From the IMG/VR virus record IMGVR_UViG_3300025120_009955, positions 8,357-72,356 of that record: 64,000 nt of DNA, one strand, 5' to 3'. The notes under the pieces are model-generated. The model was given only the letters and a program-made list of their open reading frames with translations. It was not told the origin of the DNA and made no database searches. Numbering within the stretch: position 1 is the first letter of the stretch; each line of letters opens with the position of its first letter. This DNA is from a virus. Positions 20,200 through 37,298 of this stretch are shown piece after piece. The position numbers were made by a program, and so were the translations under genes.

Positions 20200-20516
20200 T
20201 GCAGTTAATATTTGGTAAAGATAATGCAGAAAAACTTAGAGAAAGGTATGTTGTACTGGATCTAGAAACTGTAGAAAAAGATGGAGTAAGCATTGAAGTA
20301 TACTGTCTAATACCAGGTGATAAAATAGGACTGCCAGATATGCCACAGATAGACAATTGGACAAAATTACATCACGAAATGATGGATGGATTTCACACTC
20401 AACAATACAAATATGTTCGTGATGCCATTGAACACCTAATGGGTAAGTTCGGTGGAGAAGTAGATACATTCTATACAGAAATACTTGGCCGAATCGACAA
20501 AGCCGAATCTGAATAA
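20199..20516 (+). CDS. hypothetical protein resembling the C-terminal tail of class III adenylate cyclases
   Basis: by-eye similarity to the C-terminus of 35286..37298. Confidence 0.5.
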   Translation: MQLIFGKDNAEKLRERYVVLDLETVEKDGVSIEVYCLIPGDKIGLPDMPQIDNWTKLHHEMMDGFHTQQYKYVRDAIEHLMGKFGGEVDTFYTEILGRIDKAESE

Positions 20517-20606
20517 TATTATATAACTCCTTTTAAAACCCACTTAAATTAACAACCACTATTTCTCTAACCTAAAACCACGATAAATACTCGTGGAGAC
20601 TAGACA

Positions 20607-21065
20607 ATGAGACACGTAATATTGGTGTTACTTTTCAGCTTGACATTTCTATTCAAGCCAGTAGTAGCACAACCACTTAAAGATTTTACATTTAAAAGCC
20701 CAGCCTTTAATGGTAATGGGTATTCTGCACACGTCTTAACAATAGAAAACCAAGAACATTCACGTAAAAAAGCTATCGCAGAAAAGATAGAAGCCAAACT
20801 AAAACAAGAACAAGCAGACGCAGAAAATACTAATGTTAAAAAATTCATGAGCAACTTAGAATCACGTATATATGCTCAAATATCACAGGACGTTGCCACA
20901 GCAATGTTTAACGATGATGGCTCATCACCAACATCAGGTTCACTAAACTTTGAAGGAAATATTATTACTTGGGATAAAAGCTCAGGTGACATAGTGCTAG
21001 GGGTTACAGATTTAGTAGGAACAACTACTACATTGACAATACCGTTAGGTGATTTTACATTCTAA
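20607..21065 (+). CDS. csgF: curli assembly protein CsgF-like
   Basis: signal peptide then FTFKSPAFNGNG, matching CsgF F.NP.FGG; upstream of csgG. Confidence 0.8.
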   Translation: MRHVILVLLFSLTFLFKPVVAQPLKDFTFKSPAFNGNGYSAHVLTIENQEHSRKKAIAEKIEAKLKQEQADAENTNVKKFMSNLESRIYAQISQDVATAMFNDDGSSPTSGSLNFEGNIITWDKSSGDIVLGVTDLVGTTTTLTIPLGDFTF

Positions 21066-21880
21066 TGAAAATATTATTAATTCTATTATATGCCTTGATA
21101 CTGGCAGGTTGTGCAACTGGTCAGGCAATGAAAGGTACTTATGATCAACCGGTAACAGTGGGTGCACCAACTGTTAAAGAGTTTGATACTATACCACCAC
21201 CGGCACTAGGTAAGGTAGTGGTTGCTGTTTATAACTTTACAGATAAGACAGGACAAAGACGTCCAAGTGACACACAGTCAAGTTTTAGTACAGCAGTAAC
21301 ACAAGGTGCTGATGCGTTTTTAATTAAAGCATTAAAAGACGTAGGCAACAGTGGGTGGTTTGAAGTAGTAGAACGTGGAGGACTTGCTAGTCTTACACAG
21401 GAAAGACAGATTATTAGACAGATGCGTGAAGCCTACGATGGGCCAGACGCTAAGAAACTTATGCCGATGAAGTTTGCTGGTATGTTGATTGAAGGTGGTA
21501 TTACAGGATATGACACTTCAACAAGAAGTGGTGGTATGGGTATGCGAGTATTAGGCATAGGGCCACAAACACAATTTAGTGAAGATATTATCACTGTGTC
21601 GTTGAGAGCAGTAAGCGTTAACACTGGTTCAGTATTAGCGGCTGTGAATGTACAGAAAACAGTATATTCTACAGCAGACAGTATAGCAGTATTAAAGTTC
21701 TTTGACAATGACACACAGGTTTTTGAATTTGAGTCGGGCATTACATTAAACGAACCGGCAACATTAGCAGTGAAAACTACAGTAGAGGCGGCTGTAGTTG
21801 AGCTAATAAAAGAGGGCGAACTCAAAGACGTTTGGGATTTCGCATATGAGCCTATTAATGGCAAGGAAACAAAAGAATGA
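21065..21880 (+). CDS. csgG: curli secretion channel lipoprotein CsgG
   Basis: lipobox LAGC, VAVYNFTDKTGQ, FSTAVTQG, WFEVVER, LTQERQIIR. Confidence 0.93.
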   Translation: MKILLILLYALILAGCATGQAMKGTYDQPVTVGAPTVKEFDTIPPPALGKVVVAVYNFTDKTGQRRPSDTQSSFSTAVTQGADAFLIKALKDVGNSGWFEVVERGGLASLTQERQIIRQMREAYDGPDAKKLMPMKFAGMLIEGGITGYDTSTRSGGMGMRVLGIGPQTQFSEDIITVSLRAVSVNTGSVLAAVNVQKTVYSTADSIAVLKFFDNDTQVFEFESGITLNEPATLAVKTTVEAAVVELIKEGELKDVWDFAYEPINGKETKE

Positions 21881-22650
21881 AAAAATTAGTAAAAATATTT
21901 GGGGTGTTATTACTAACAATGTCAGTAGCATTTGCCGCTGATAATAGTATCTATATTAATCAGGCTGGTAGTTCTAGTACTATTAATCTAAAACAAGACG
22001 GTAGTGCCAACAAAATATACGGTAAAGGTGATTCAGAAGGAACCGCGGCATTATTTACTGGTAGTAGTCAAACAGTTGACATACGTCAAGTTGGTGCCAG
22101 TAACTTGTTAGGAATTGATGTTAACAGTACGGTGGTCAGTGGTGTAGGTGTTAATTTAACATACTACATTACAGGTTCAAACTCTGTAGCAAGTATTGAC
22201 ATCAACGGTGATGGCTTAGGTACAGCCGCGAATAACGTATTTAATGTACAAATGACAGGTAACTACAATGATTTAGTAGCTGACATATTAGGTACAGGTA
22301 ATAGTTTAACAGCAACAGCAGTAGGAGGTAATTACAATGACTTCAACTTTACCATTGATGCTGACGACACAACTACAGGTATAGCAATCAGTGGTGGTGG
22401 TAGTAACGTTACAACATTGGTGTTAGGTACTGATGACTCAACAGTTAATTATACAGCAGTTGGTGCATCAAACACACTCAGTCTGACACAAAGTGGAGTA
22501 GGTGACGGTACTAACGGACATAACTTTGATTTAGATATTAACGGCTCATCAAACGCATTTACTGCTACACAAGCAGATACACAGTTTAATGATATTGATG
22601 TGAACATTACTGGTAACAGTAATACTTGGACAATTAATCAAACAAACTAA
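21877..22650 (+). CDS. secreted curlin-repeat-like protein
   Basis: signal peptide; N-x5-Q-x-G-x2-N/S type repeats (NSIYINQAGSSSTINLKQDGSAN). Confidence 0.7.
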   Translation: MKKLVKIFGVLLLTMSVAFAADNSIYINQAGSSSTINLKQDGSANKIYGKGDSEGTAALFTGSSQTVDIRQVGASNLLGIDVNSTVVSGVGVNLTYYITGSNSVASIDINGDGLGTAANNVFNVQMTGNYNDLVADILGTGNSLTATAVGGNYNDFNFTIDADDTTTGIAISGGGSNVTTLVLGTDDSTVNYTAVGASNTLSLTQSGVGDGTNGHNFDLDINGSSNAFTATQADTQFNDIDVNITGNSNTWTINQTN

Positions 22651-22651
22651 T

Positions 22652-22807
22652 ATGCAAACTCAAAAACAACATCTGGTGATAATGATGCAGGACCTAAATG
22701 CTCTTAGGCAAGAAGTAGCATTGTCACCAAACGGTGTAAACTCTATTTTAAAAGAAATAGATGAACGTGGTTGCGAGTTATTATATCAGTATCTAGCAAC
22801 TCCATGA
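22652..22807 (+). CDS. hypothetical small protein (51 aa, not in ORF track)
   Basis: MQTQKQHLV...YLATP; stop overlaps the next start (ATGA). Confidence 0.45.
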   Translation: MQTQKQHLVIMMQDLNALRQEVALSPNGVNSILKEIDERGCELLYQYLATP

Positions 22808-23916
22808 TCAAGTTACTCGTAGTTTTACTCATGGCTATTCCCCAAATAGCTATGGGTGCTATTGGTACTATCTCACAACAAGAACAAGATCCAGCAAGAA
22901 TTACTCGTAAAGATATAACTCTCAAAGGTGTTAAAGGTGTGGGTGTAGAAATGAAAGATAGTCTACGCACAGGAGCCGGCACACTTGAAATTACATTTGA
23001 AGATGACACACAGGTACAGATGACAGAGTCAGCTAAGTTAACCATTGATGACTTTATATACGACCCCAACAACAAGGACGCAGGCAAACTAGCAATTAAG
23101 ATAGGCCGAGGCACAGCCCGTTATGCGTCAGGCCAGATAGCAAAGGATCGTCCACAAGCAGTTAAAATTAGAACACCAAGTGCAACAGTAGCAGTTAGAG
23201 GTACTGACTTTACGGCTACAGTAGATGAAATAGGTGCTACCACAGTTATTCTATTACCTAGTTGTCCTCAAGGTTGGATAGATATTCAACAAGATTGTAA
23301 GACTGGTGCTATTGAAGTTATAAGTTTAGGTGGAAGTGTTTATATGGATAAACCATTTGAAGCAACTCGTGTACCTAATCTAGAATCAAAACCAAGTCCG
23401 CCAGTTATAGTTGATCTGACTGAAGAAATGATCCGTGCGATTATTATAGTGGGTACACCACGAGAAGTTAAAGAAGAAGAACGTAAACAACTTGCAAAGA
23501 ATGCCTTAGACCAAAATGCCTTGGACCAAGAACAATTAGAAAACGAATTAGATAAACAAGCACAAGAACTAGAGCAATACAATGCCAGCTCAAGACTAAG
23601 TCGTAATCTATTAGACAGAGATTTTTTAGCCAACATATTAGACATACTTAATTTGCAATTAATGAATGCACAGGCTCGTGTGTTAAGCAGTACACAAAAA
23701 AATTCAATACTACCAGACTATATTCCAGACCAAGGTGTAGAAGCTTATGTGGATAGTATGCACGTGGAACTATGTATAGACACCATTGGTAGTGACATTG
23801 CCTGTGTTAAAACACCAACCACACAAGAAAGTACTATACGTCAGATACAGGGCACTGTAGATATAACTAACAGAGTTAATAGTGAAGGTACAACTGTTAT
23901 TACTACGAGACAATAA
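22804..23916 (+). CDS. FecR-domain secreted protein
   Basis: signal peptide; D.LRTG, ITFEDDT, IRTPSATVAVRGTDF. Confidence 0.85.
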   Translation: MIKLLVVLLMAIPQIAMGAIGTISQQEQDPARITRKDITLKGVKGVGVEMKDSLRTGAGTLEITFEDDTQVQMTESAKLTIDDFIYDPNNKDAGKLAIKIGRGTARYASGQIAKDRPQAVKIRTPSATVAVRGTDFTATVDEIGATTVILLPSCPQGWIDIQQDCKTGAIEVISLGGSVYMDKPFEATRVPNLESKPSPPVIVDLTEEMIRAIIIVGTPREVKEEERKQLAKNALDQNALDQEQLENELDKQAQELEQYNASSRLSRNLLDRDFLANILDILNLQLMNAQARVLSSTQKNSILPDYIPDQGVEAYVDSMHVELCIDTIGSDIACVKTPTTQESTIRQIQGTVDITNRVNSEGTTVITTRQ

Positions 23917-25430
23917 TGAGAGCCAGCATACTATTATTTTTGTTGTTAATTTTCCAGCATTTATTCGCAACAAAAGCACAAGCCTTAGATATCCTAATCT
24001 ATCACAGCAACTATGTCTATACTGATTCAAAGACAGGACTTGAAGCAAAAGGTTATACAGTATCGGGTTCAACATCAACCACAGTTGCTTCAGCATCTAC
24101 TCTGGCAAACTATGATATAGTATTTGATCAACTATACAACAACAACTGTGGATCTACTTGTCGTGCTAACTATGACACCTATGTCAAGGACGGTGGCACT
24201 CTAGTTATTGTAGGAGAGAACTCAAATTTTTCTAGTAGAAACAATACTGTTATAAGTCTCATTGAGAACAAGTTTGGTGGCACATTGGATCTAGGTTCAA
24301 ATGTTTCTGGTGGTGCTACTTACTCTACAGCAGATAACACAGTCAATACATCAATCAGTGGCACTGACGATGGCGGACAATACATCTATGGTTCCAGTAT
24401 AGCAAATACATCTGACGGCGTCTGGGTAGCAAAGACTGGTGGTGGTGCTGTCATTTGGATGATGTGGCGTGGCAGTAGTTTACCAAGTGGCTATACAGGT
24501 TCTGTTATAGTTACGTTTGACATCAATCAGTTCGACGATATGTATGACACCTCTGAGACTTGGGAATTCGTTGATGATGTGATCTACTATGGTATCAACG
24601 GTGAAATGGAATCAAGTGGCACAACAACTACTACAACAACAGGAACAAGCTCAGGTATATCAGGCGGACAGAGTACACAAGTTACTACTGATCGTGCAAG
24701 AGCGGCAACTATTAAAAGTACTTCTGGTGCTAGTGATAACTCAGTTTATATAGAACAAGCTGGTGACAGTAATACTGTGGAGATTCTACAAGATGGTTCA
24801 TCAGGTAATCATATAAGAGGTATTGGACAAAATATGGCTGATATAACAGGTGATTCAAATGATCTTGAAATAAAGCAAGGTGCTGGTACATCAGGTGATG
24901 GAGTTAATTTAATTGAATTAATGATTGATGGTGACACTAATGACCTAAAACTATATCAAGATAGATATGATGATGGAACAGCAGATGCAGATCCGACTGG
25001 TGACCATATTATTAAACTCAATGTCGATGGTAATTTAAATGACATTGAAGTAATTCAACGATCAAATGGCACAGATGGTCATTATGCAGATATAGATGTG
25101 ACTGGCAATTCTAGTAATTTTGATATTCTACAAAAAGGTCAACACGAAAAACAATTGTTTATAGATGTAACAGGCAATAGCAATATAATAGATGTTGAAC
25201 AAAGAGATAGCACATCTAAATTTGCGGATATAAAATTAATTGGAAATGGTCATGATGTGACTGTACTACAAAAAGGAACAGGTGCTCATAACGCAACAAT
25301 TGATTTAACTTTTGGTTCTGGAGCAAGCACTGTAGATTTAACACAACAAGGTACTTCAAATCAATCATATTCGCTAGAACAAATTTGTTACAATGTATCC
25401 GGGTGTTCAACTACAGTAACACAAGAATAA
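23916..25430 (+). CDS. secreted protein: N-terminal globular domain plus C-terminal curlin-like repeats
   Basis: signal peptide; Thr-rich linker; repeats such as NSVYIEQAGDSNTVEILQDG. Confidence 0.7.
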   Translation: MRASILLFLLLIFQHLFATKAQALDILIYHSNYVYTDSKTGLEAKGYTVSGSTSTTVASASTLANYDIVFDQLYNNNCGSTCRANYDTYVKDGGTLVIVGENSNFSSRNNTVISLIENKFGGTLDLGSNVSGGATYSTADNTVNTSISGTDDGGQYIYGSSIANTSDGVWVAKTGGGAVIWMMWRGSSLPSGYTGSVIVTFDINQFDDMYDTSETWEFVDDVIYYGINGEMESSGTTTTTTTGTSSGISGGQSTQVTTDRARAATIKSTSGASDNSVYIEQAGDSNTVEILQDGSSGNHIRGIGQNMADITGDSNDLEIKQGAGTSGDGVNLIELMIDGDTNDLKLYQDRYDDGTADADPTGDHIIKLNVDGNLNDIEVIQRSNGTDGHYADIDVTGNSSNFDILQKGQHEKQLFIDVTGNSNIIDVEQRDSTSKFADIKLIGNGHDVTVLQKGTGAHNATIDLTFGSGASTVDLTQQGTSNQSYSLEQICYNVSGCSTTVTQE

Positions 25431-25455
25431 TTCTACCAAAAAAGCATAATTTGTC

Positions 25456-25529
25456 TTGACTCTATTAATAAAATCCCATATAATTAATATTACAATTTTG
25501 TAACACTCTTGTTACATCTTGTATAAATA
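25456..25529 (+). promoter_or_regulatory. xoxF promoter region: sigma70 promoter, inverted repeat and late promoter
   Basis: TTGACT(25456)-17-TATAAT(25479); TGTAAC-N6-GTTACA (25499-25516); TATAAATA (25522-25529). Confidence 0.7.
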
Positions 25530-25632
25530 AAAGTGTAGCAGTTCTAACTGTTATATTTAGAGTGGACGCGGTTTCCAATATTCATGAAACAACCGGCACG
25601 TTTAATCAACTTTTCTCTAAAGGAAAAAATCA

Positions 25633-27507
25633 ATGCAATTAAATAAAATTAAACTAGCTCTTGGTTTTATCACTGTAGCGACCCTAGCTTCATCAGGTGC
25701 GTTTGCGGCGGCAGATCAAGAGAAAGCAATGGCAAATGCTAACAACTGGGCACACCCTAGAGGTCAGCACGATAACCAGGCTTATTCTAAGTTGACTCAA
25801 ATCAACAAAGGTAATATTAAAAATCTTAAAGCGGCTTGGACATTAAGTACAGGCGTAAATAGAGGACACGAAGGTGCCCCTCTAGTTATTGGTAATATGC
25901 TATATGTACATACAGCATTTCCAAATAACGTATATGCTTTAGATTTAAACAACAACCAAAAAGTTGTATGGTCTTACTTCCCTAAACAAGATCCTAGCGT
26001 TCAAGCAGTTCTATGTTGCGATAACGTTAACCGTGGTCTTGGTTTTGGTAACGGTAAAATCTTCTTACAACAAAACGATGGTATGTTAGTAGCATTAGAT
26101 GCAAAAACAGGTGCTAAAGTTTGGGACGTAAGTAATACAGATCCTAAAGTTGGTGCTACAAATACTAACGCTCCTCACGTAATTAAAGACAAAGTTCTTA
26201 CTGGTTGTTCTGGTGCAGAATTTGGTGTTCGTTGCTTTATAGCGGCATATAACATTGAAGACGGTTCTTTAGCTTGGAAAGCTATGAGTACAGGTCCTGA
26301 CGAAGAAGTATTAATTGGTAAAGATTTCAACAAAGAAAATCCACTTTATTCAGCTCTATCAGTTTACGAAGATGTAAACGGTGGTAACGTTGAAGGCGGT
26401 TCTTTCAAAAGAATTCCAACTGATCAACTTGAAGCTCCAGTAGCAGACCTAGGTCTTAAGACTTGGTTGAAACCACAAGCTGTTAAAGATGGTTGGCAAC
26501 ACGGTGGTGGTTCTGTATGGGGTTGGTGGCCATATGATGCTAAGACTAACTTAGTATACTACGGTACAGGTAATCCTTCAGTATGGAATCCAGATGTACG
26601 TCCAGGTGACAACAAATGGTCTATGACAGTGTTCGCACGTGATCTAGATACAGGTATGGCACGTTGGGGTATGCAAATGACACCACACGATGAATGGGAT
26701 TATGACGGTATTAACGAAGTTATCCTATTTGACAAAGGTGGAAAAACATACGCTTGGCACCATGACAGAAACGGTTTTGCATACACTTGGGTAGCTAGTA
26801 ACGGTACTTTAGTTTCAGCTGAAAAAGTGCATCCATTCGTTAACTGGTCAACTGGTATTGATCTTAAAACTGGTGTGCCACAAAAAGAAGCGGCACATTC
26901 AACACACCAAGATTACAACACTAAAGGCACTTGTCCTGCGGCACTTGGTACTAAAGACCAACAGCCTGCGGCATATTCACCTAAGACAGGTTTAATATAC
27001 TCACCACTTAACCACGTATGTATGACATACGAACCAGTTGAGTCTAAGTATGTTGCTGGTCAACCTTGGGTTGGTGCTACTTTAACTATGTTTGCTGGTC
27101 CTGATGGCGTAATGGGTGGCTTTGCCGCTTATGATCCAATGACTAACAAAAAAGTATGGTACAACAAAGAGAAATTCTCAGCTTGGGGCGGTGCATTAAC
27201 AACAGCTTCAGACTTAGTTTTCTATGGTACTTTAGATCGTTGGTTTAAAGCGTTAGATGCAAAATCAGGTAAAGAACTTTGGAAATTCCAAGTTGGTTCT
27301 GGCGTGATTGGTAATGCGTTTACGTACTCACACAAAGGCAAACAGCACGTTGGCGTACTATCAGGTATTGGTGGTTGGGCTGGTGTTGCTATGAACCTTG
27401 GTCTAACAAATGACACAGATGCACTTGGTGCGGCTGGTGGTTATAAAGAGTTAACAAAGTATAATGCGGCTCCAGGTGGCGGTGCATTAACAGTGTTCTC
27501 ACTATAA
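25633..27507 (+). CDS. xoxF: lanthanide-dependent PQQ methanol dehydrogenase XoxF (Methylophilaceae XoxF4-like)
   Basis: signal peptide, vicinal CCD, GAEFGVR, GNPS.WN, DEWDYDG with the extra lanthanide-binding Asp (MxaF has DYAG). Confidence 0.95.
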   Translation: MQLNKIKLALGFITVATLASSGAFAAADQEKAMANANNWAHPRGQHDNQAYSKLTQINKGNIKNLKAAWTLSTGVNRGHEGAPLVIGNMLYVHTAFPNNVYALDLNNNQKVVWSYFPKQDPSVQAVLCCDNVNRGLGFGNGKIFLQQNDGMLVALDAKTGAKVWDVSNTDPKVGATNTNAPHVIKDKVLTGCSGAEFGVRCFIAAYNIEDGSLAWKAMSTGPDEEVLIGKDFNKENPLYSALSVYEDVNGGNVEGGSFKRIPTDQLEAPVADLGLKTWLKPQAVKDGWQHGGGSVWGWWPYDAKTNLVYYGTGNPSVWNPDVRPGDNKWSMTVFARDLDTGMARWGMQMTPHDEWDYDGINEVILFDKGGKTYAWHHDRNGFAYTWVASNGTLVSAEKVHPFVNWSTGIDLKTGVPQKEAAHSTHQDYNTKGTCPAALGTKDQQPAAYSPKTGLIYSPLNHVCMTYEPVESKYVAGQPWVGATLTMFAGPDGVMGGFAAYDPMTNKKVWYNKEKFSAWGGALTTASDLVFYGTLDRWFKALDAKSGKELWKFQVGSGVIGNAFTYSHKGKQHVGVLSGIGGWAGVAMNLGLTNDTDALGAAGGYKELTKYNAAPGGGALTVFSL

Positions 27508-27533
27508 TCTAGTTAGTTAGATTGTATTACTTT

Positions 27534-27561
27534 AAAAAGGCTCTTTCGGGGGCCTTTTTTT
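27534..27561 (+). terminator. rho-independent terminator after xoxF
   Basis: AAAAAGGCTCT-TTCG-GGGGCCTTTTTTT. Confidence 0.8.
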
Positions 27562-27586
27562 ATCAATTAAACTATAAACAATAAAT

Positions 27587-30427
27587 ATGACTATGAGCTT
27601 AACTAAACCAGTTGATTACGGCACACCATTAAAAACCACAAAACCCACTATTACCCTCGAAATTGACGGTGTTGAAACTACTGTGCCTGAAGGTACAAGT
27701 ATTATGGCGGCCGCAAAAATTAACGATACTAGTATTCCAAAACTCTGCGCCACGGATAGTCTAGAACCATTTGGTAGCTGTAGACTTTGTTTGGTTGAAA
27801 TAGAAGGTAGAAAGGGTTATCCTGCAAGCTGTACCACACCTGTAAGCGAGAATATGAAGGTACGCACCCAAACACCAAAACTAGAAGAACTAAGACGTGG
27901 AGTAATGGAATTATATATTTCCGATCACCCATTAGACTGCCTAACCTGTGCAACGAATGGTGACTGTGAATTACAAGATATGGCAGGTGCTGTTGGCCTA
28001 AGAGATGTTCGTTACGGCTTCGATGGTGAAAATCATTTAGCCCAAGAGAAAGATAAAACAAATCCGTACTTTACATTTGACCCTAGCAAGTGTATTGTGT
28101 GTTCACGATGCGTTAGAGCGTGTGAAGAAGTACAAGGTACATTTGCCTTGACTATAGAAGGTAGAGGATTTGATTCAAAGGTATCAGCAGGTAATAAAGA
28201 CTTTATGGATTCAGAATGTGTTAGCTGTGGAGCCTGTGTTCAGGCCTGTCCAACAGCAACACTGATAGAAAAAACAGTAGAAGAACACGGAGTACCTGAT
28301 CGTAGTGAAACAACAACCTGTGCTTATTGTGGTGTTGGGTGTAGTTTCAACGCTGAAATGAAAGGTGATCAATTGATACGTATGGTGCCAAACAAAGACG
28401 GTGGTGCTAATCACGGACACAGTTGTGTCAAAGGACGTTTTGCCTGGGGATATGCTACACACAAAGATAGAATAACAACTCCAATGATACGTAAGTCTAT
28501 CAACGATCCATGGAAAGAAGTAACCATGGAAGAAGCTATTGATTATGCCGCTACAGAAATAAAAAGATTACAGAAAGAACACGGCCGTAATTCAGTAGGT
28601 GGTATAACATCAAGTCGTTGTACCAATGAAGAAACATATGTTGTACAAAAATTAGTACGTGCGGCACTTGGAAATAATAATGTAGACACCTGTGCTAGAG
28701 TTTGCCATTCACCAACAGGATATGGATTAAAAAGCACCTTAGGTGAAAGCTCTGGAACACAAGACTTTGACAGTATCAGAGAAACAGATGTAGCAGTTAT
28801 AATAGGTGCTAATCCTACAGACGGACATCCAGTGTTTGCTAGTCATATGAAACGTAGACTACGTGATGGAATGAAATTAATAGTAATTGATCCACGTGAG
28901 ATTGACATATTACATACCATACACGGCAATGGTGGGTTACACCTACAGCTTAAACCAGGCACTAATGTAGCAATGATAACCAGCATAGCACACGTCATAG
29001 TAACAGAAGGGCTTTGTCAAGAACAATACATAAACGATCGTTGTGAATTAGACAGCTACGAAATGTGGAAAGAATTTGTTAGTAAAAAAGAAAACAGTCC
29101 AGAAGTATTAGGACTAGAAACAGGAGTTGATCCTGAATTAATACGTGAAGCCGCGAGAATATATGCTGAACCTGGTAATTCAGCATTTTACTATGGACTA
29201 GGAGTAACAGAACATAGCCAAGGAACAACAATGGTTATGGGAATAGCTAACTTGGCAATGGCTACTGGTAACCTAGGTAAAAATGGAGCAGGAGTAAATC
29301 CATTACGTGGACAGAACAATGTCCAAGGTGCTTGTGATATGGGTAGTTTCCCACACGAGTTTCCAGGTTATAGGCACGTCAGCGAACAATCAACTAGAGA
29401 TCTTTTTGGTAACCATTGGGGAGTTGAATTAGATCACGAGCCAGGCCTACGTATTCCTAATATGTTAGACTTTGCTATAGGTGGAAAGTTTAAAGGAATC
29501 TATATCGAAGGTGAAGACATAGCACAAAGTGATCCAAATACTAAACACGTGACACGGGCCTTAGAAGAAATGGAATGTGTCATAGTACAGGATTTATTCT
29601 TAAATGAAACAGCTATGTATGCACACGTATTTTTACCTGGATCAAGTTTCTTAGAGAAGTCAGGTACCTTTACTAATGCCGAAAGAAGAATAAGTCCAGT
29701 AAGAAGAGTAATGGCTCCTAAGAATGGATATGAAGATTGGGAAATAACACAGATGCTATCTAATGCACTTGGTTACAAAATGAACTATGCAAGTGCTTCA
29801 GAAATACTTGATGAAATAGCAGAACTAACTCCAACCTTTAAAGGAGTAAGTTGGGCTAAATTAAGAGAACTAGGCAGTATACAATGGCCTTGCAATGATG
29901 AGCATCCTACAGGCACTCCTATTATGCACGTCAATGAGTTTGTGCGAGGTAAAGGAAAATTTTGGATTACAGAATACATTCCAACTGATGAGAAAGTTAA
30001 TCAACGCTTTCCGTTAATACTAACAACTGGGCGTATACTAAGTCATTACAATGTAGGTGCTCAGACTAGAAGAACTAAAAACTCAGAATGGCATCAAGAA
30101 GATCTATTAGAAATACATCCAACAGATGCAGAAGCACGTGGAATCAATGATGGTGATCCAGTTAACATTAAGAGTCGTGCAGGGCATACATCTTTAACCT
30201 GTCGTGTTACGGAACGTGTACAGCCAGGCGTAGTATATACAACATTCCATCATCCGTGGAGTGGAGCAAATGTTATCACAACTGATAACTCAGACTGGGC
30301 TACTAACTGTCCAGAGTTTAAAGTAACAGCAGTAGAAATTAGTCTAGCAGTAGAAAACAGTGAGTGGCAGAAACAGTATGAAAAATTCAGTGACACACAA
30401 AAAACTTTAGCAGAAGTACGTGACTAA
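27587..30427 (+). CDS. fdsA: NAD-linked molybdopterin formate dehydrogenase alpha subunit (FdsA-type)
   Basis: N-terminal 2Fe-2S and 4Fe-4S Cys motifs, CAYCGVGC, active-site CARVCH (Cys, not Sec), RGQNNVQG, molybdopterin-binding C-terminus. Confidence 0.93.
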   Translation: MTMSLTKPVDYGTPLKTTKPTITLEIDGVETTVPEGTSIMAAAKINDTSIPKLCATDSLEPFGSCRLCLVEIEGRKGYPASCTTPVSENMKVRTQTPKLEELRRGVMELYISDHPLDCLTCATNGDCELQDMAGAVGLRDVRYGFDGENHLAQEKDKTNPYFTFDPSKCIVCSRCVRACEEVQGTFALTIEGRGFDSKVSAGNKDFMDSECVSCGACVQACPTATLIEKTVEEHGVPDRSETTTCAYCGVGCSFNAEMKGDQLIRMVPNKDGGANHGHSCVKGRFAWGYATHKDRITTPMIRKSINDPWKEVTMEEAIDYAATEIKRLQKEHGRNSVGGITSSRCTNEETYVVQKLVRAALGNNNVDTCARVCHSPTGYGLKSTLGESSGTQDFDSIRETDVAVIIGANPTDGHPVFASHMKRRLRDGMKLIVIDPREIDILHTIHGNGGLHLQLKPGTNVAMITSIAHVIVTEGLCQEQYINDRCELDSYEMWKEFVSKKENSPEVLGLETGVDPELIREAARIYAEPGNSAFYYGLGVTEHSQGTTMVMGIANLAMATGNLGKNGAGVNPLRGQNNVQGACDMGSFPHEFPGYRHVSEQSTRDLFGNHWGVELDHEPGLRIPNMLDFAIGGKFKGIYIEGEDIAQSDPNTKHVTRALEEMECVIVQDLFLNETAMYAHVFLPGSSFLEKSGTFTNAERRISPVRRVMAPKNGYEDWEITQMLSNALGYKMNYASASEILDEIAELTPTFKGVSWAKLRELGSIQWPCNDEHPTGTPIMHVNEFVRGKGKFWITEYIPTDEKVNQRFPLILTTGRILSHYNVGAQTRRTKNSEWHQEDLLEIHPTDAEARGINDGDPVNIKSRAGHTSLTCRVTERVQPGVVYTTFHHPWSGANVITTDNSDWATNCPEFKVTAVEISLAVENSEWQKQYEKFSDTQKTLAEVRD

Positions 30428-30514
30428 AGATTACAGTTAGATTACAAAAATGCAATTAGTGCTTGCTTTTTCTTATAATCCTAGTAAAATATAGTTTTAA
30501 ATAATTAAATACAA

Positions 30515-30790
30515 TTGATGGAAACATTCAAATACTATTTCAACAAAACTATTATCACACTTTGCATTCTCTTCTTTTTCGTATTATGGTATCAAATACT
30601 TTCTAAAATCTTGTGTAGTGTGTTTTGTGAAGTTGAGACTGCAGAAGTTGTTATAGCATATGAGGATATGACTCCTGAACAACGTCGAGCAGAATTTGAA
30701 AAACTAAAAGCACAAAGGACAGCAGAAAATGAAGAAAATAGTAGTACTCCTGACACTACTGACAGTGTCAACATTAGCTCTAGCAGATAA
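30515..30790 (+). CDS. hypothetical membrane protein
   Basis: N-terminal hydrophobic segment; overlaps next gene by 62 nt. Confidence 0.45.
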   Translation: MMETFKYYFNKTIITLCILFFFVLWYQILSKILCSVFCEVETAEVVIAYEDMTPEQRRAEFEKLKAQRTAENEENSSTPDTTDSVNISSSR

Positions 30791-31295
30791 GAAAGGATAT
30801 TTTTACGGAGTTAAATTTGACCATAAAAATAGCATAGGCGGTACTGATGCTAACACCTTTGGTGTAGAGTTTGGCAAACACGTATATGATTGGTTAGATG
30901 TAAAAGTAGCAACTAACTACACCGACAAAGAAGGTAGAAGCAAAGGCAATAGCTACCGTCTTGAAGCAGGCCCAAAATTCAAACATAAACTAAATCAAGA
31001 TTGGTCAACTAGTTTGTTCCTAGCAACAGGACAAAAGTTTGTCAAAGATGATGACTATGGATATTGGGTAGTAACACCAGGAGTCAAATATAAAATTAAT
31101 CAAGACTGGAGTGTAGGCACTAGTGTTAGATTCCGTAACAGTTACGATACTAGTCACAATCAAAGTGATAGGACTTACGCTGTTAAACTAGGATATAAAA
31201 TTACACCAGATGTCTCAGTAAGTACTCGCTATAGAATGAAACGAGGTGACAGTGAATATAACGCTATTGGCGTTGGTTTCAAGTTCGAATTTTAA
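30729..31295 (+). CDS. small outer-membrane beta-barrel protein (KdgM-like porin)
   Basis: signal peptide, alternating amphipathic strands, terminal GVGFKFEF. Confidence 0.7.
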   Translation: MKKIVVLLTLLTVSTLALADKKGYFYGVKFDHKNSIGGTDANTFGVEFGKHVYDWLDVKVATNYTDKEGRSKGNSYRLEAGPKFKHKLNQDWSTSLFLATGQKFVKDDDYGYWVVTPGVKYKINQDWSVGTSVRFRNSYDTSHNQSDRTYAVKLGYKITPDVSVSTRYRMKRGDSEYNAIGVGFKFEF

Positions 31296-31340
31296 TAATA
31301 TTGTATAATGGTAGTCATTGAGTACTAAATATTAATGTAC

Positions 31341-31388
31341 TCGTTCATCCCATCAGGGACGGAAGTAGGCATAAGCTGAAGGAACGCT
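31341..31388 (+). ncRNA. glutamine riboswitch (glnA/Downstream-peptide class)
   Basis: CGTTC...TCCC-ATCA-GGGA-CGGAAGTAG-GC-ATAA-GC-TGAAG-GAACGC three-way junction with E-loop motif. Confidence 0.8.
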
Positions 31389-31409
31389 TCTTTTTAAAAG
31401 GAGATAGCT

Positions 31410-31601
31410 ATGTATACTGAAGAATATACATCCACCATATTAGAAATTGCAACACTATTAGATCTCGAAGTTAAAGAAGTAACTAACTTCCTTGAGCTAA
31501 TGCTAGATGGTTACGGTTTTACTGATGCTCTTCACGGAACGCATTTAACCAGAGATGACTGTGAACTAGTGTTAGCAGAACTTAAGAAAAGAAAAAAATA
31601 A
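31410..31601 (+). CDS. hypothetical small protein downstream of the glutamine riboswitch
   Basis: 63 aa, AAGGAG RBS. Confidence 0.7.
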   Translation: MYTEEYTSTILEIATLLDLEVKEVTNFLELMLDGYGFTDALHGTHLTRDDCELVLAELKKRKK

Positions 31602-31602
31602 T

Positions 31603-31962
31603 ATGATAGACATCTTATTCTTGTTAATGGTCAAACACTGTATCTGTGATTTAGGATTACAGAGTCAACTGCTATGGGGCAAGACCATTAACAAGCAATA
31701 TTACTTTGGCTGTCATAGTCATTATTTACATCACGCTGTTGGTACGTTCCTAGTTATACTGTTATTTTTTAATCCTTTATTGGCATTAAAAATAGCTGTC
31801 ATTGACTACATAGCACATTGGCATATTGATTATACAAAACATCGGGTGCAACTCTATTGGAATCTTGGACGAAAGGACAAGGCGTTTTGGTGGGTAACAG
31901 TAGTCGATCAATTATTACATTTCTTAACATACTATATCTTTGTTGTTTACCTAGTTAATTAA
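31603..31962 (+). CDS. DUF3307-like membrane protein
   Basis: KH.I.D...Q, H...H, HWHIDY.K, DQLLH. Confidence 0.75.
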   Translation: MIDILFLLMVKHCICDLGLQSQLLWGKTINKQYYFGCHSHYLHHAVGTFLVILLFFNPLLALKIAVIDYIAHWHIDYTKHRVQLYWNLGRKDKAFWWVTVVDQLLHFLTYYIFVVYLVN

Positions 31963-32009
31963 TATTAACGTAGCACATAAGTTATCTACGCATATTTTTA
32001 AATACTAAT

Positions 32010-32375
32010 ATGAAAGTAAACGAATTTTTTAAACACAATTTTGTTCTGATTCCAGTTATAGCATCAGTCATTTTTGGTACTGTAACAGGTATCAAGTATG
32101 TTATTGATCTTACAAACACTATTGATGCCAACAACCAACGTGTTGAAAAACTATTAGGTGACCTAGAAGGCATCGACGACAAATATCGAGACAAGATTGA
32201 CACTCTTAAAGACGATTTGAATGAAGCTGAAAACTTGAACTCACAAGAAATAGCTGAACTAAAAGCAGAAGTTGCTAAACTAGATTCAGCATTACGTATG
32301 GGTGAAGATCTTTATCGAGTGTTAGCAGATCAGGTTAGAGAACAATCATATGATATTAAAGACCTTAATCGCTAG
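32010..32375 (+). CDS. membrane-anchored coiled-coil protein
   Basis: one TM helix then heptad repeats. Confidence 0.65.
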   Translation: MKVNEFFKHNFVLIPVIASVIFGTVTGIKYVIDLTNTIDANNQRVEKLLGDLEGIDDKYRDKIDTLKDDLNEAENLNSQEIAELKAEVAKLDSALRMGEDLYRVLADQVREQSYDIKDLNR

Positions 32376-33051
32376 TATAATCCTACTTACTATAAGTCAA
32401 TCAGTACTTGCTCGTAACGACTACCTAAACGGACAATCCTGGCAACAGTGTAATAAAGGAACTATTTCAACCTACGGTAGTTACAATCAACAAGACAACA
32501 CTAACTACAATGGGCAAAATTATCCTGGTAGGTTGAGTGATAACTCCAGTAACTTTGGTGGCAGTCAAGGGGACAGTCAACAAATTGGCATAAACTTTAC
32601 CTGGTTTTTAGGTAGTAACTGTACAGACGAAGTACAAGACTTTATGTTTGACTCAATGAAGATCAACAGACAACTTGAACTAGCTAAAATGTGTCAACGC
32701 TACAAGCATAAAGAACTACCAGATAACTTTGCTGAACTTAGATCAGTGTGTGCAGGCTTTCCAGATGATATTGAGAATGAGCATAGACCACCAGAAGGTA
32801 GTGGTAGTTACTATGATGAACTCTTGCAAGAAATTAAAGACGGCAAACATCCTGACAAGAATCCTAAAAAATATCATTCAGACGATGTTAAGGTACCTTT
32901 CCAAGATAGTTTAAAACTAAAGTATGATGGTAAGGATACTAAAACACATAAATTAAAAGTTCCTAAGGGAATGGATAAACCTCGTCTGACAGACGAGTAT
33001 GGTCTTCCATTGCCCTACACAATACCTGAACCTAAAGTAGTGTTCGAATAA
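32350..33051 (+). CDS. secreted hypothetical protein
   Basis: signal peptide, four Cys. Confidence 0.65.
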   Translation: MILKTLIASIILLTISQSVLARNDYLNGQSWQQCNKGTISTYGSYNQQDNTNYNGQNYPGRLSDNSSNFGGSQGDSQQIGINFTWFLGSNCTDEVQDFMFDSMKINRQLELAKMCQRYKHKELPDNFAELRSVCAGFPDDIENEHRPPEGSGSYYDELLQEIKDGKHPDKNPKKYHSDDVKVPFQDSLKLKYDGKDTKTHKLKVPKGMDKPRLTDEYGLPLPYTIPEPKVVFE

Positions 33052-33110
33052 GTTCTAGTAAAATCTCATTTTTGATAGTATAATATAATTAATTTATATA
33101 GGAGTTATCT

Positions 33111-33356
33111 ATGAAAGTATTACGATTTACAGCAGTCTGGTGTGAACCGTGCAAGATGTTAGCAAAGAATTTAGACAATGTTACAACACAAGTGCCTATC
33201 CAGGTACTCGATATTGACAAAGAAGAAGATTTAGCTAGACACTTTAATGTGCGTTCAGTACCAACATTAGTTATGATTAATGAGGACAAGAAAGAAGTAA
33301 AACGTGTAGTTGGAGTGCAATCAGTAAAACAACTTAACCAGTTTATCAATGAATAG
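33111..33356 (+). CDS. thioredoxin
   Basis: WCEPC, SVPT. Confidence 0.9.
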   Translation: MKVLRFTAVWCEPCKMLAKNLDNVTTQVPIQVLDIDKEEDLARHFNVRSVPTLVMINEDKKEVKRVVGVQSVKQLNQFINE

Positions 33357-33530
33357 AAACTAATGGTTTTCAGTATGCTTTTTATATAAAAGTATCATAT
33401 AATTAACATAAGTAATAACAGTAACACGTTGTTACTCAAAGAAGCGAATCATCAAATTGGACCTGTGGTAACACTCTCCAATGATTTGGCTAGCCGACAT
33501 ATTATTAATTTTTTAAAAAGGAATACTATT

Positions 33531-33602
33531 ATGTGGACTACACCTCAAGCAACTGAAATGCGTTTCGGTTTTGAAGTAACTATGTACGTAATGAACAAGT
33601 AA
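33531..33602 (+). CDS. pqqA: pyrroloquinoline quinone precursor peptide PqqA (23 aa, not in ORF track)
   Basis: MWTTPQATEMRFGFEVTMYVMNK with E-x-x-x-Y; AAGGA RBS; own terminator. Confidence 0.95.
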   Translation: MWTTPQATEMRFGFEVTMYVMNK

Positions 33603-33625
33603 TACCTGTTTATACAATACAGATT

Positions 33626-33713: not shown

Positions 33714-34433
33714 ATGAGATACTTGTTTGCTGTAGCGTTATTAGTACTTTCATTCGTGGCTTCATCTGCACCGAATCCAGACTTATGGCCGTATGTGCAA
33801 GAAAGATTATTCAATGACCGTATAGCAGTAGAAGCAGATCCTCTAGAGCTATCTATAGATGGACCAAAAAGAGCGGCAAGTGGTGCTCAAGTTCCTATTA
33901 CTATCAAAGTAAATTCAAAAAAATTCAAAAAACTATATCTTATAATAGATGCTAATCCTACACAGCACGCCGCCACATTTACGTTAACTGAAAGCACTCA
34001 AACAACTGAGATAATGACACGTATTAGGATGGAAACAGATAGTTTTGTCCGTGTAATCGCTGAAGATGAAAATGGGCATTTATCAATGAGTGCAAAAGCT
34101 ATTAGAGCATCAGGTGGTTGTAGTGGATATATGGATTCAAGCGATCCTGAATTAACCAAAGCCTTAGGTAAAATCCTTTACAAAGCTAAAAACGGGTACC
34201 AGACGACTAGAATTAAACATCCTATGTTTACTGGACTACAAAAAGATTCAATTAACGGATGGTATGTACCAGAATGGATTATTAACCGTGTAGAATGGTA
34301 TGACGGTGCTTTACTAGTAATGTCAGTAGACACTAATATTTCAATGTCACAAGATCCATATTTTAAATTTAAATATTCAAGTCCTGTTACAATCATAGCA
34401 ACAGATACTAAAGACAATAAATGGTCTAAGTAG
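33714..34433 (+). CDS. quinoprotein dehydrogenase-associated SoxYZ-like carrier
   Basis: signal peptide; SoxY-like half (LIIDANP, TRIRMETDS.VR, ASGGC) fused to SoxZ-like half (IKHPMFTGLQKD, ISMSQDPY). Confidence 0.85.
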   Translation: MRYLFAVALLVLSFVASSAPNPDLWPYVQERLFNDRIAVEADPLELSIDGPKRAASGAQVPITIKVNSKKFKKLYLIIDANPTQHAATFTLTESTQTTEIMTRIRMETDSFVRVIAEDENGHLSMSAKAIRASGGCSGYMDSSDPELTKALGKILYKAKNGYQTTRIKHPMFTGLQKDSINGWYVPEWIINRVEWYDGALLVMSVDTNISMSQDPYFKFKYSSPVTIIATDTKDNKWSK

Positions 34434-34766: not shown

Positions 34767-34769
34767 TTT

Positions 34770-35020: not shown

Positions 35021-35095
35021 GCACCCATCGTCTATCGGTTAGGACACCGGGTTTTCATCCCGGCAAGGGGAGTTCGATTCTCCCTGGGTGTACCA
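35021..35095 (+). tRNA. tRNA-Glu(TTC)
   Basis: cloverleaf; anticodon arm CCGGG-TT-TTC-AT-CCCGG; encoded CCA. Confidence 0.93.
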
Positions 35096-35100
35096 ATTTT

Positions 35101-35176
35101 GCCCTCTTAGCTCAGTTGGTAGAGCAACGCACTTGTAATGCGTAGGTCGTCAGTTCGAATCCGACAGAGGGCACCA
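35101..35176 (+). tRNA. tRNA-Thr(TGT)
   Basis: cloverleaf; ACGCA-CT-TGT-AA-TGCGT; encoded CCA. Confidence 0.95.
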
Positions 35177-35182
35177 AGATAA

Positions 35183-35272
35183 GGAAGTGTGGCTGAGTGG
35201 CTTAAAGCTCTGGTTTACTAAACCAGTGATCGGGAAACTGGTCCGTGGGTTCGAATCCTACCACTTCCGCCA
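35183..35272 (+). tRNA. tRNA-Ser(ACT)
   Basis: type II tRNA with long variable arm, G73 discriminator, CTGGT-TT-ACT-AA-ACCAG. Confidence 0.88.
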
Positions 35273-35285: not shown

Positions 35286-37298
35286 ATGATTAAAAAGATA
35301 TTATTAAGTCCGTGGACAGCAGTTGTTACGCTGTCCATAATTGTTTATATAGCACTAAGTAGTCCTATATTTTTAGAATCGGTTAAGTTAAGATACTTCG
35401 ACCAACTAATTACCTCACAGCCTGAACAACAAACAACAATAGCAACGGTTAACATAGATGAAGCAAGTCTAGACAAGTATGGGCAGTGGCCATTCAGTCG
35501 TGATGTATATGGTGACATAATCAAAGACCTATATGATCGTGGTGCCGGTTTAGTAGTATGGAACATATTAATGTCTGAAGAAGACCGATTGGGTATGGAT
35601 CATAAGCTACAAGAAGTATTACGAGAACACCCTGTTGTTTTACCGTTAGTGGGTGCAGAAGAAACTAAAAATTCACCACGCAATCCTGGTGCAGTTATGA
35701 TAGGTGATCCTACAAACAAAGTAGTAGAGTATCCAGGTATACTATCAAGTATTGATCATCACGAAAGTCTGGCATATGGTAGTGGTATAAGTTCAGTATT
35801 TCCAGAAGTAGATGGTGTAACTCGTAGGATGCCGTTAGTAATTAAAAGTGGAGATACACTGTACCCAAGTTTAGGTTTAGAAGTCCTACGCATATTAGCA
35901 GGTGATCCAAGTTTCCAAATTAAATTTTCAGACATAGGCATTGACAAACTACGTGTACCACAGTTTGGTATTGTTTCAACAGATCCTGTAGGGCGTATAT
36001 GGATTGATCATCAACAGCGTCCTCAGAGTTATAGTCTAACAGAATTACCAGAAACATTTGATAGTGGTATAGTTATAGTAGGAACATCAGCCGCGGGCAT
36101 TGCAAATCCGATAGCAACTAGTCGTGGTGAAGTATGGCCGCAAGACTTACAAGCGAGTGTGATAGCAACATTAGCAAGTGGTATCAATATTCAACGTCCA
36201 GACTGGGCAAGAGGTGCTGAATTATTAACACTAATTACCTTAAGTATTTTACTGCTACTACTGTCTAGATGGATATATGTAGGGCTAGGTGTAAGCATTG
36301 TTGTACTAGGTAGCCTAGTGCCAGTTACAGAATACGTATACGCAGAATATTTAATGTTGTTTGATGCTACTCTAGTACTAGGTGGCGGAATACTTGTGTT
36401 ATTGCACGCATATGGTATTAAGTTTGTAAGTGAATACCTGCAGAAACAACAGATCAAGAAACAGTTTGGAACATACCTATCACCGGCTATGGTTGAGAAA
36501 CTACAGAAAAATCCAGAGCTATTGAAGTTAGGTGGAGAAACAAGACAGTTAAGCATAATGTTTACAGATGTACGTGGATTTACAACTATATCAGAACACT
36601 ATGGCGATGATGTACAAGGACTTACTAGTATCATGAATCGTTATATGACTGCTATGACTGAGAAGATTATTGAAAACGGTGGCACAATAGACAAATATAT
36701 TGGAGATGCCCAGATGGCTTTCTGGAATGCTCCTATAGACGACCCCGATCACGCAGAGAACGCTGTAAGAACAGCATTAAAGATGATAGGGAGTTTGAAT
36801 GAGTTTAATGAAGAAATTAAAAAAGAAGGTATACCACCTTTTGCAATGGGATTGGGGATTAATTCCGGTTCTTGTGTCGTTGGGAATTTTGGTAGTGTTC
36901 AACGTTTCGATTATACTTGCCTCGGGGATACTGTCAACTTGGCCGCAAGGTTAGAAGGACAGAGTAAAAACTACGGAGTTGATATTATATTAGGTCAAGG
37001 CACTGTGGAATATATAAAACACAAGATTGATGTAGGATTAATTGAACTAGATAATATCGCAGTTAAAGGAAAAACACAAGGAGTTAAAATATATACAATT
37101 GGTAATGTTGAAGTGAGTAAACATCAAGAATTCCTTGACAACTACTACGCAGGCAATTGGGAAGATGCTCTTTACATAGCTAGAAGATTTGCAAACGATG
37201 ACAATGTTATCTCTGGCTATTATCAAAAAATGGTCGAAAGACTTATACAAGGGTGCCCAGACGATTGGGACGGAACATTTCGAGCAAAAACTAAATAA
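35286..37298 (+). CDS. CHASE2-domain class III adenylate/guanylate cyclase
   Basis: IDEASL..YGQWPFSR, DGVTRR (CHASE2); TM helices; FTDVRGFT, DKYIGDA, GDTVNLAARLEG. Confidence 0.93.
   Translation: MIKKILLSPWTAVVTLSIIVYIALSSPIFLESVKLRYFDQLITSQPEQQTTIATVNIDEASLDKYGQWPFSRDVYGDIIKDLYDRGAGLVVWNILMSEEDRLGMDHKLQEVLREHPVVLPLVGAEETKNSPRNPGAVMIGDPTNKVVEYPGILSSIDHHESLAYGSGISSVFPEVDGVTRRMPLVIKSGDTLYPSLGLEVLRILAGDPSFQIKFSDIGIDKLRVPQFGIVSTDPVGRIWIDHQQRPQSYSLTELPETFDSGIVIVGTSAAGIANPIATSRGEVWPQDLQASVIATLASGINIQRPDWARGAELLTLITLSILLLLLSRWIYVGLGVSIVVLGSLVPVTEYVYAEYLMLFDATLVLGGGILVLLHAYGIKFVSEYLQKQQIKKQFGTYLSPAMVEKLQKNPELLKLGGETRQLSIMFTDVRGFTTISEHYGDDVQGLTSIMNRYMTAMTEKIIENGGTIDKYIGDAQMAFWNAPIDDPDHAENAVRTALKMIGSLNEFNEEIKKEGIPPFAMGLGINSGSCVVGNFGSVQRFDYTCLGDTVNLAARLEGQSKNYGVDIILGQGTVEYIKHKIDVGLIELDNIAVKGKTQGVKIYTIGNVEVSKHQEFLDNYYAGNWEDALYIARRFANDDNVISGYYQKMVERLIQGCPDDWDGTFRAKTK

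Follow-up and report, generated by a model that had tools for sequence, protein, structure and literature searches.

A XoxF4-1-like methanol dehydrogenase gene on a putative T4-like phage contig

Does a virus of marine methylotrophs carry its own copy of the enzyme by which its host oxidises methanol, and would this copy work with a rare-earth metal? The question is raised by xoxF, a gene at positions 25633-27507 of a 64,000-nucleotide stretch of DNA (hereafter, the window), which covers positions 8357-72356 of one contig of 72,356 bp, filed as an IMG/VR virus record (IMGVR_UViG_3300025120_009955; CheckV completeness 20%). A preliminary description, made from the letters of the window, had read the gene as that of a lanthanide-dependent methanol dehydrogenase and had supposed that the fitness of the phage may depend on rare earths. 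From the analysis reported here, it is likely that a T4-like myophage of marine OM43-type Methylophilaceae carries the sole methanol dehydrogenase gene of its host as an auxiliary metabolic gene. That viruses can carry a methanol dehydrogenase has been known since 2020; the new elements are the typing of the enzyme to the lanthanide group, its setting in a jumbo phage of marine OM43, the neighbouring genes, which encode the alpha subunit of a formate dehydrogenase (FdhA) and a SoxYZ-like carrier, and the alleles that track those of the hosts.

The enzyme and its bacterial relatives

The xoxF open reading frame (ORF) begins with ATG and runs over 624 amino acids (aa) with zero internal stops, and encodes a full-length methanol/ethanol dehydrogenase of the pyrroloquinoline quinone (PQQ) type. 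Specifically, the protein scored 607.9 bits, against a cut-off of 480.05, with the profile of the PQQ dehydrogenase, methanol/ethanol family (TIGR03075), its residues 21-581 covering positions 3-530 of the 530 in the profile. The top solved relatives in the Protein Data Bank (PDB) are the lanthanide-dependent XoxF structures 6oc5 (E=1.4e-199) and 6dam. As first described, the motif DEWDYDG lies exactly at 26689-26709, and structure alignments place its second Asp (Asp358) opposite an Asp in both 6oc5 and 6dam and opposite an Ala in the MxaF structure 4tqo. In an alignment of 93 rows this column holds Asp in 90, Ala being found solely in three MxaF-like paralogues. The vicinal Cys pair, also part of the first description, was found at residues 128-129, and this column is Cys in 92 of the 93 rows, the exception being a copy truncated at a contig end. 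In addition, Glu196, Asn319, Asp356, Asp358 and Arg379 are all kept, as in the bacterial enzymes; in methanol dehydrogenases the Cys-Cys, Glu, Asn and Arg residues belong to the metal and PQQ sites. All together, the alignments indicate that DEWDYDG is a conserved feature of the family and no chance match. The accessible text of PMC11996626 uses the D-x-D motif as an indicator of lanthanide use.

A Sec-type leader, as had been proposed, is visible at the N-terminus, as judged by eye and by hydropathy only. It consists of Lys5 and Lys7 followed by hydrophobic residues 8-25 (mean Kyte-Doolittle value +1.72, vs -1.56 for residues 28-60), with A-F-A before the predicted cut.

To place the protein among its relatives, a tree was built from the same 93 rows (the window, three other phage copies and 89 bacterial proteins) under LG+G4, by a quick method with the Shimodaira-Hasegawa-like approximate likelihood ratio test (SH-aLRT) as sole support, after removal of 15 identical duplicates and of one 362-aa fragment. 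The phage protein is sister to the XoxF of Methylophilaceae bacterium Uisw_099_01 (SH-aLRT 99), within the OM43 group. It falls in a clade of 82 rows (support 100), which leaves out two sets of paralogues. The amino-acid identities to the phage protein form three bands, of 83-95%, of 66-74% and of 51-56%, the latter two being those of the paralogues left out and the last being MxaF-like. According to the accessible text of Huang 2018 (PMC6028718), XoxF4 is found in Methylophilaceae only, one XoxF4-1 is present in the minimal genomes of planktonic members, XoxF4-1 is ~70% identical to other XoxF4 and ~50% identical to MxaF, and both XoxF4 enzymes purified from M. mobilis are strictly dependent on light lanthanides. 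The 1.4-Mb, OM43-type genome of Uisw_099_01 gave one match only to the phage XoxF, that is, a single copy. The phage protein can thus be classed as XoxF4-1-like, a label assigned by the criteria of Huang 2018 in a tree without a labelled M. mobilis reference. The proposal of a XoxF-type enzyme was therefore borne out, as far as can be judged from sequence, by the lanthanide-coordinating Asp together with the grouping with XoxF of Methylophilaceae; clustering with the Ca-dependent MxaF was not found.

The nearest bacterial XoxF is that of Uisw_099_01 (CP159827; 95% identity), followed by a Black Sea metagenome-assembled genome (93%) and OM43 single-cell genomes (90-92%), and no protein more than 95% identical to the phage XoxF was found among 5.8 billion. 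The phage and Uisw_099_01 proteins match over their full length, share the active-site residues and are of equal length bar one residue in the leader; they differ in the upstream region and the signal peptide, which have diverged, and in their surroundings, as the bacterial gene is followed by XoxJ- and XoxG-like genes whereas the phage gene stands between a curlin gene and fdhA. At the DNA level, the similarity to Uisw_099_01 runs from the start codon to the stop codon, and the regions upstream are unrelated. Along the gene, sliding identity ranges from 73% to 98%, a spread for which a recombination mosaic was considered as a possible cause. We also compared the contig with 80 bacterial xoxF loci, all from Methylophilaceae or unclassified relatives, with at most 8 kb of flank per side and less at contig ends. 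In all 80, xoxF alone matches the contig, save for one unrelated S21-like ORF of 80 aa in one locus. These data point to the capture by the phage of a single gene, the xoxF of a host.

The captured gene is under strong purifying selection. Compared with the Uisw_099_01 gene, the ratio of nonsynonymous to synonymous substitution rates (dN/dS) is 0.065 at a dS of 0.61, with 30 residue differences, nine of which lie within residues 1-24; across three phage-host pairs dN/dS ranges from 0.065 to 0.10. Base composition was also considered as a clock for the transfer and was set aside as uninformative, both GC and its value at third codon positions (GC3) being equal in the phage and host genes.

Proposed role in the infected cell

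T4-like cyanophages carry psbA and the like, genes for the key energy-harvesting protein of their host, and keep them close to the host alleles. By analogy, xoxF would be the counterpart of psbA for a phage of methylotrophs, likewise an auxiliary metabolic gene, with the difference that the phage XoxF is predicted to be periplasmic and dependent on a cofactor and a rare earth, and would need export and maturation by the host. In the mechanism that we propose, the Sec system of the host would export the phage XoxF to the periplasm during infection, where the enzyme would be loaded with a light lanthanide imported by the host and with PQQ, the supply of which would be raised by the pqqA gene of the phage. 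XoxF would then oxidise methanol, and probably other alcohols like XoxF4-1, passing electrons to the XoxG cytochrome of the host. In this way proton-motive force, ATP and the flux of formaldehyde would be kept up while host gene expression falls. Phage FdhA, in turn, may join FdsB/G-type (diaphorase) subunits of the host, converting formate to CO2 with a gain of NADH. Since the host type is without another methanol dehydrogenase, the host itself would already require rare earths, and the phage gene would add to the demand and create no new dependency. That phage fitness may depend on rare earths, as was supposed, would in part be trivial, XoxF being the sole methanol dehydrogenase of the nearest host-type genome.

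The use of a host cytochrome was addressed through the partner genes. In the nearest bacterial genome (locus L018), xoxF is followed by an SBP_bac_3 gene (XoxJ-like) and by a gene for a CxxCH cytochrome c (XoxG-like). A tblastn search with a threshold of E<=10 returned no credible homologue of either from the 72-kb contig or from the related genomes G001, G002, G003 and G006, in agreement with the first description, in which the window held neither xoxG nor xoxJ. The only CxxCH among the six-frame ORFs of at least 50 aa of the contig is antisense within another gene. Because the fragment holds no cognate cytochrome or XoxJ, use of the host XoxG would be the simplest reading; ~80% of the phage genome lies outside the contig. 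As a separate observation, the freshwater relative G001 encodes a secreted c-type cytochrome (CxxCH) of 98 aa in the same island between xoxF and the cyclase gene, and the corresponding island of the marine contig is without this small cytochrome.

Several points weigh against the proposed role and its phage setting. xoxG and xoxJ are absent from the fragment, and no structural or packaging gene was found either on the 72-kb contig or on the 104-kb relative G001. Both promoter candidates upstream of xoxF (Table 1) are consensus matches only, and the RNA runs X15-X20 contain a fraction of only 0.12-0.16 of the sampled words and are uninformative on expression. Part of the low dN/dS could stem from the divergence of the sampled host from a donor that was not sampled, instead of from evolution within the phage. 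Finally, heterologous expression gave no active XoxF4 (accessible text of Huang 2018, PMC6028718), a reminder that maturation needs host factors.

A real phage gene might serve another role, namely the detoxification of alcohols or aldehydes (formaldehyde), or the sensing or sequestering of lanthanides by the apo-protein, or it might be a recent passenger of no benefit. Such readings find some ground in the accessible text of Huang 2018 (PMC6028718), where XoxF4-1 accepts, besides methanol, other alcohols and formaldehyde as substrates, and in M. extorquens, where, in the part of the literature available to us, a role in lanthanide sensing is proposed for apo-XoxF. Moreover, xoxF occurs in just one of 80 related cyclase loci (see below) and is therefore dispensable for this group of phages. 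However, the low dN/dS in three phage-host pairs, the retention of all catalytic residues and the recurrence of xoxF in at least five phage contigs speak against a gene without function, and the presence of pqqA, the quinoprotein-associated carrier and FdhA in the same island is better explained by a functional oxidation pathway than by a passenger. We consider these other roles rather improbable, and retain a gene for methanol oxidation as the preferred reading.

The further copies deserve attention in their own right. Four more IMG/VR contigs carry an xoxF with 82-88% identity, so that at least five phage contigs, including the window, are known. The phage copies in the tree (the window, L002, L003 and L004) are polyphyletic, each standing beside a different host lineage: the G002 copy pairs with LSUCC0401/0665 (support 100), and the G001 and G003 copies pair with MMSCM63 (support 99; 97.2% DNA identity, dS 0.096). 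Forcing the four phage copies together cost 455 units of log-likelihood (p-AU 4e-7, approximately unbiased test), whereby monophyly is rejected; the viral group had been set before tree building and the test was run after the tree had been seen. In addition, the xoxF of G002 lies a few kb beyond NrdAB, outside the curlin-cyclase island, giving at least two backbone locations overall. The simplest reading of these placements would be repeated capture, or replacement by host alleles. A further-reaching version, which we offer tentatively and regard as possible but doubtful, is that the xoxF slot is repeatedly refilled with the local host allele, keeping the enzyme matched to the XoxG/XoxJ, PQQ and lanthanide delivery of the host, as part of a virus-run module from methanol to CO2. 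If this were true, infected cells would drive part of the marine methanol turnover and of the biological demand for rare earths.

Phage context and metal

Synteny with two phage genomes supports the phage origin of the DNA. Of 97 ORFs on the contig, 18 have a match in Melnitz, a cultured OM43 phage, and 41 have one in G006, the latter in colinear blocks. G006 is a complete IMG/VR genome of 338,435 bp with direct terminal repeats (CheckV 100%) and has a T4-like set of genes, comprising major capsid protein, TerL, portal, sheath, prohead protease, PolB, gp41, UvsX and gp55. The genes to the left of xoxF are colinear with 50.7-54.8 kb of Melnitz (29-44% identity) and with 313.6-310.8 kb of G006, and the adenylate/guanylate cyclase to the right is 39% identical to the Melnitz copy and 56% to that of G006. 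A search with the cyclase family retrieved 80 IMG/VR loci, including contigs of 328-344 kb, and a Melnitz-like major capsid protein was found in all five of the largest cyclase-bearing contigs, one of the matches covering a mere 59 residues. The Melnitz capsid protein gave no match in G000-G004 (0/5), and XoxF was not found in the five largest relatives (0/5).

Other features agree with this picture. The FecR-domain gene by xoxF has phage-database relatives only in Melnitz and in Pelagibacter phage HTVC008M (six records), 10 of 20 large ORFs are without a Pfam family at E<=1e-5, and the PHROGs matches of the window proteins are mostly to families of unknown function. The window also carries an ATP-dependent ligase. 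Taken with the virus record, the Melnitz and G006 synteny and the T4-like gene set of G006 uphold the viral nature of this DNA, and the contig is best described as a fragment of a T4-like jumbo phage, with a genome of ~340 kb by the CheckV estimate. Because the contig and G001 are without a structural gene, the link to a virion is made by homology and synteny and is not physical.

The gene could instead be bacterial: the contig might be part of a Methylophilaceae chromosome, wrongly classified or chimeric, or xoxF might lie in host DNA that flanks a prophage. The 95% identity of the protein to a bacterial XoxF, the missing capsid and terminase genes and the cell-like genes of the contig (NrdAB, DnaK, GroES/EL, ClpP, three tRNAs and a transfer-messenger RNA (tmRNA) that scores as betaproteobacterial) would all suit such an origin. 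Against it, phage backbone lies on both sides of xoxF, in the order seen in Melnitz and in the jumbo phage genome with terminal repeats; none of the 80 bacterial xoxF loci has any neighbour gene of the island; and for half of the large ORFs tested no Pfam family was found. Furthermore, the curli operon and the riboswitch-controlled tmRNA are described as phage features absent from OM43 hosts in the accessible text of the Melnitz paper (PMC9004378).

The junctions of xoxF were also inspected in other data sets. Twenty public runs contain all or part of the stretch, and the 14 holding at least half of the sampled words are labelled as marine, seawater or brine metagenomes. The contigs that we used came from four runs, each of a different study, and no run flagged as a possible source of the record was among them. 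Single contigs bridge the curlin gene and xoxF in three of the four (X2, 25285-26889; X3, 25167-25926; X6, 25293-25986), while the step from xoxF to fdhA is bridged in all four, with one contig spanning 27085-33578. As independent contigs bridge both junctions, the placement of xoxF is no assembly artefact. A prophage plus host flank was ruled out by the phage genes on both sides, and we judge a bacterial origin of the gene as a whole to be very unlikely.

Use of calcium, as in MxaF, or of another metal is barely credible: the MxaF structures score close below XoxF (613 vs 668 bits) and MxaF shares the PQQ propeller family, the Cys-Cys pair and the catalytic Asp, but MxaF is only ~52% identical, has Ala in place of Asp358 (as do the MxaF-like paralogues of three Methylophilaceae genomes) and forms a separate clade, split from the phage XoxF by a long branch with support 100, while the XoxF4 clade is strictly lanthanide dependent in M. 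mobilis (accessible text of Huang 2018, PMC6028718) and tblastn revealed no further PQQ dehydrogenase gene on the contig, the mxaI small subunit not having been searched for.

Against 50,697 phage records, megablast with positions 20000-40000 of the window returned tRNA-sized matches only, and tblastn with XoxF returned only a 25%-identical Acinetobacter glucose dehydrogenase, in two records. For the 428-aa protein at 12690-13976, merely two short IMG/VR loci were retrieved. As a side observation, the adjacent proteins at 53638-54540 and 54649-56397 have a C-terminal domain that recurs in phage proteins of PHROGs 6427 and 22593 and, weakly, in a tail-fibre family; the pair is the sole hint of a structural gene on the fragment.

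The island and its precedents

The genes that accompany xoxF form an island of ~9.8 kb between the second curlin gene and the cyclase gene (Table 1); in Melnitz the cyclase follows directly after the curlin gene. Further island genes encode a small outer-membrane beta-barrel protein, a thioredoxin and an RpoZ-like protein.

Table 1. Position of xoxF, its motifs and the features of the surrounding region (window coordinates unless a contig is named)
Feature	Position	Strand	Basis or remark
Left backbone: csgF, csgG, curlin-repeat, FecR-domain, curlin-repeat genes	20607..25430	+	Pfam CsgF, FecR, Curlin_rpt
Sigma-70-like promoter candidate, TTGACT-17-TATAAT, upstream of xoxF	25456..25484	+	11/12 consensus
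TATAAATA, candidate T4-late-promoter-like octamer	25522..25529	+	consensus match
xoxF, XoxF4-1-like lanthanide/PQQ methanol dehydrogenase, 624 aa	25633..27507	+	TIGR03075, PDB, tree
Predicted Sec leader (residues 1-25), cut preceded by A-F-A	25633..25707	+	inspection and hydropathy
Vicinal Cys128-Cys129, sole Cys-Cys of the protein	26014..26019	+	alignment
DEWDYDG, catalytic Asp356 and predicted lanthanide-coordinating Asp358, residues 353-359	26689..26709	+	alignments
Formate dehydrogenase alpha subunit, FdsA-like, 946 aa, directly 3' of xoxF	27587..30427	+	TIGR01591, 884.8 vs 666 bits
Glutamine riboswitch	31340..31390		61.9 bits; upstream of DUF3307 gene
DUF3307 gene	31603..31962		
pqqA, 23-aa PQQ precursor peptide	33531..33602	+	TIGR02107, 38.1 vs 20 bits
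Quinoprotein-dehydrogenase-associated SoxYZ-like carrier (SoxY-SoxZ fusion)	33714..34433	+	TIGR04557, 197.5 vs 140 bits; Pfam SoxY and SoxZ
Three tRNA genes (Glu, Thr, Ser), right island edge	35021..35272	+	
Right backbone: CHASE2 adenylate/guanylate cyclase	35286..37298	+	Pfam
Small cytochrome c of G001	G001:56935-57231 (L011 16935-17231)	-	

We inspected the 80 cyclase loci with up to 10 kb of flank per side and found FecR in 62, CsgG in 58, PqqA in four, XoxF in one, and neither FdhA nor the SoxYZ-like carrier in any (0 each). The sole xoxF-bearing locus is one of the known xoxF-carrying phage contigs. From these counts, the backbone is widespread and the one-carbon (C1) island is a rare, lineage-specific insert.

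FdhA is 74-76% identical to the FdhA of all five Methylophilaceae genomes searched, far below the 95% of xoxF, and no beta or gamma subunit of formate dehydrogenase was seen on the fragment. Separately, a 66% relative of FdhA was noted on the IMG/VR contig L227 (68.7 kb), which shares NrdAB and other ORFs with the phage. The carrier was also considered as a SoxYZ of sulfur oxidation; this assignment was dropped, as the protein scores as the quinoprotein-associated family TIGR04557. Around pqqA (33208-33674), the summed contig depth peaks in all four runs, at up to 282 vs ~7 elsewhere, and many loose contig ends occur, a pattern that fits the recruitment of near-identical pqqA from abundant hosts. 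The glutamine riboswitch lies ~20 kb from the tmRNA, and in the accessible text on Melnitz (PMC9004378) it is described as a control of the tmRNA.

With regard to control signals, the promoter-like sites of the region were not enriched (four found vs 5.8 expected from shuffles) and, because this count is not above that of the shuffles, the sigma-70-like site upstream of xoxF is a candidate only. TATAAATA is a match to a consensus of the T4-late-promoter type. This octamer is rarer than chance (five in the window vs a shuffle mean of 10), and its three copies on the + strand (16318, 25522, 51435) precede the starts of dnaK, xoxF and groES by 72-111 bases, which would suit a shared control of the T4-late type. 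A terminator scan returned none after xoxF, though a hairpin with a T-run behind it is visible by eye in the alignment to host DNA.

A methanol dehydrogenase has been described before on phages, a precedent that the preliminary description overlooked, as it did the pqqA gene and the SoxYZ-like carrier of the island. In the accessible text of Coutinho 2020 (PMC7678222), a methanol dehydrogenase and PqqA are reported on the T4-like Lake Baikal phages VP_139 and VP_266, with predicted Methylophilaceae hosts; this was claimed as the first such report, and an auxiliary metabolic gene boosting methanol oxidation was proposed. By their description in that paper (the comparison is one of descriptions, not of sequences), the Baikal phages resemble the present one in being T4-like, with ~35% GC, Methylophilaceae hosts and a methanol dehydrogenase gene, and in carrying ribonucleotide reductase alpha and beta, pqqA, peptide deformylase and a cytidylyltransferase. 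They are freshwater phages, whereas the present one is marine with an OM43-type allele; in addition, and unlike in the Baikal account, the present enzyme is typed as XoxF4-1-like and lies in a defined island with FdhA and the SoxYZ-like carrier. In the main text of PMC7678222, apart from its supplements and figures, "xoxF", "lanthan-" and "formate dehydrogenase" have zero occurrences each. No viral xoxF or lanthanide enzyme was found in the literature searched, including PMC12426252, PMC10994693, PMC8163748 and PMC13518059 and outside subscription journals and supplements; such genes may be listed in a survey from 2024, on viral genes of methane metabolism, to which PMC13518059 refers.

Melnitz and HTVC008M (accessible text of Buchholz 2022, PMC9004378) share with the contig the module of curli pore, FecR, curlin and cyclase genes, the two-piece tmRNA, the glutamine riboswitch, Hsp20, S21 and a T4-like set of replication genes. 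Melnitz differs in its 141.5 kb, in having no annotated xoxF, fdhA or pqqA, and in size, the present phage being estimated at more than twice as large.

XoxF4 transcripts dominate in coastal and cold surface seawater, where OM43-type Methylophilaceae are major methanol oxidisers (accessible text of PMC11996626). Viruses may be the source of some of the xoxF genes and transcripts in the environment; C1 oxidation may be sustained or raised by infection, and the supply of lanthanides could limit the virus-encoded enzyme. As cultures exist of related hosts and of Melnitz, a related phage, this would be a tractable case for the use by a phage of a periplasmic, cofactor-heavy enzyme.

Some minor observations concern the remainder of the window. 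Three paralogues of 383, 373 and 303 aa, with PHROG 25854 as their only match, lie at 7165-9434 (-) and 42224-43135 (+), and all three match one gene of G006. The fragment also holds a set of chaperone and protease genes, for DnaK, Hsp20, ClpP, GroES and GroEL (16390-18831, 49603-50193, 51529-53477). Just upstream of groES/groEL, at 51031-51339, lies the tmRNA, which is of the two-piece (permuted) type, also scores as a betaproteobacterial tmRNA (127 bits) and has, by ARAGORN, a tag of 30 residues.

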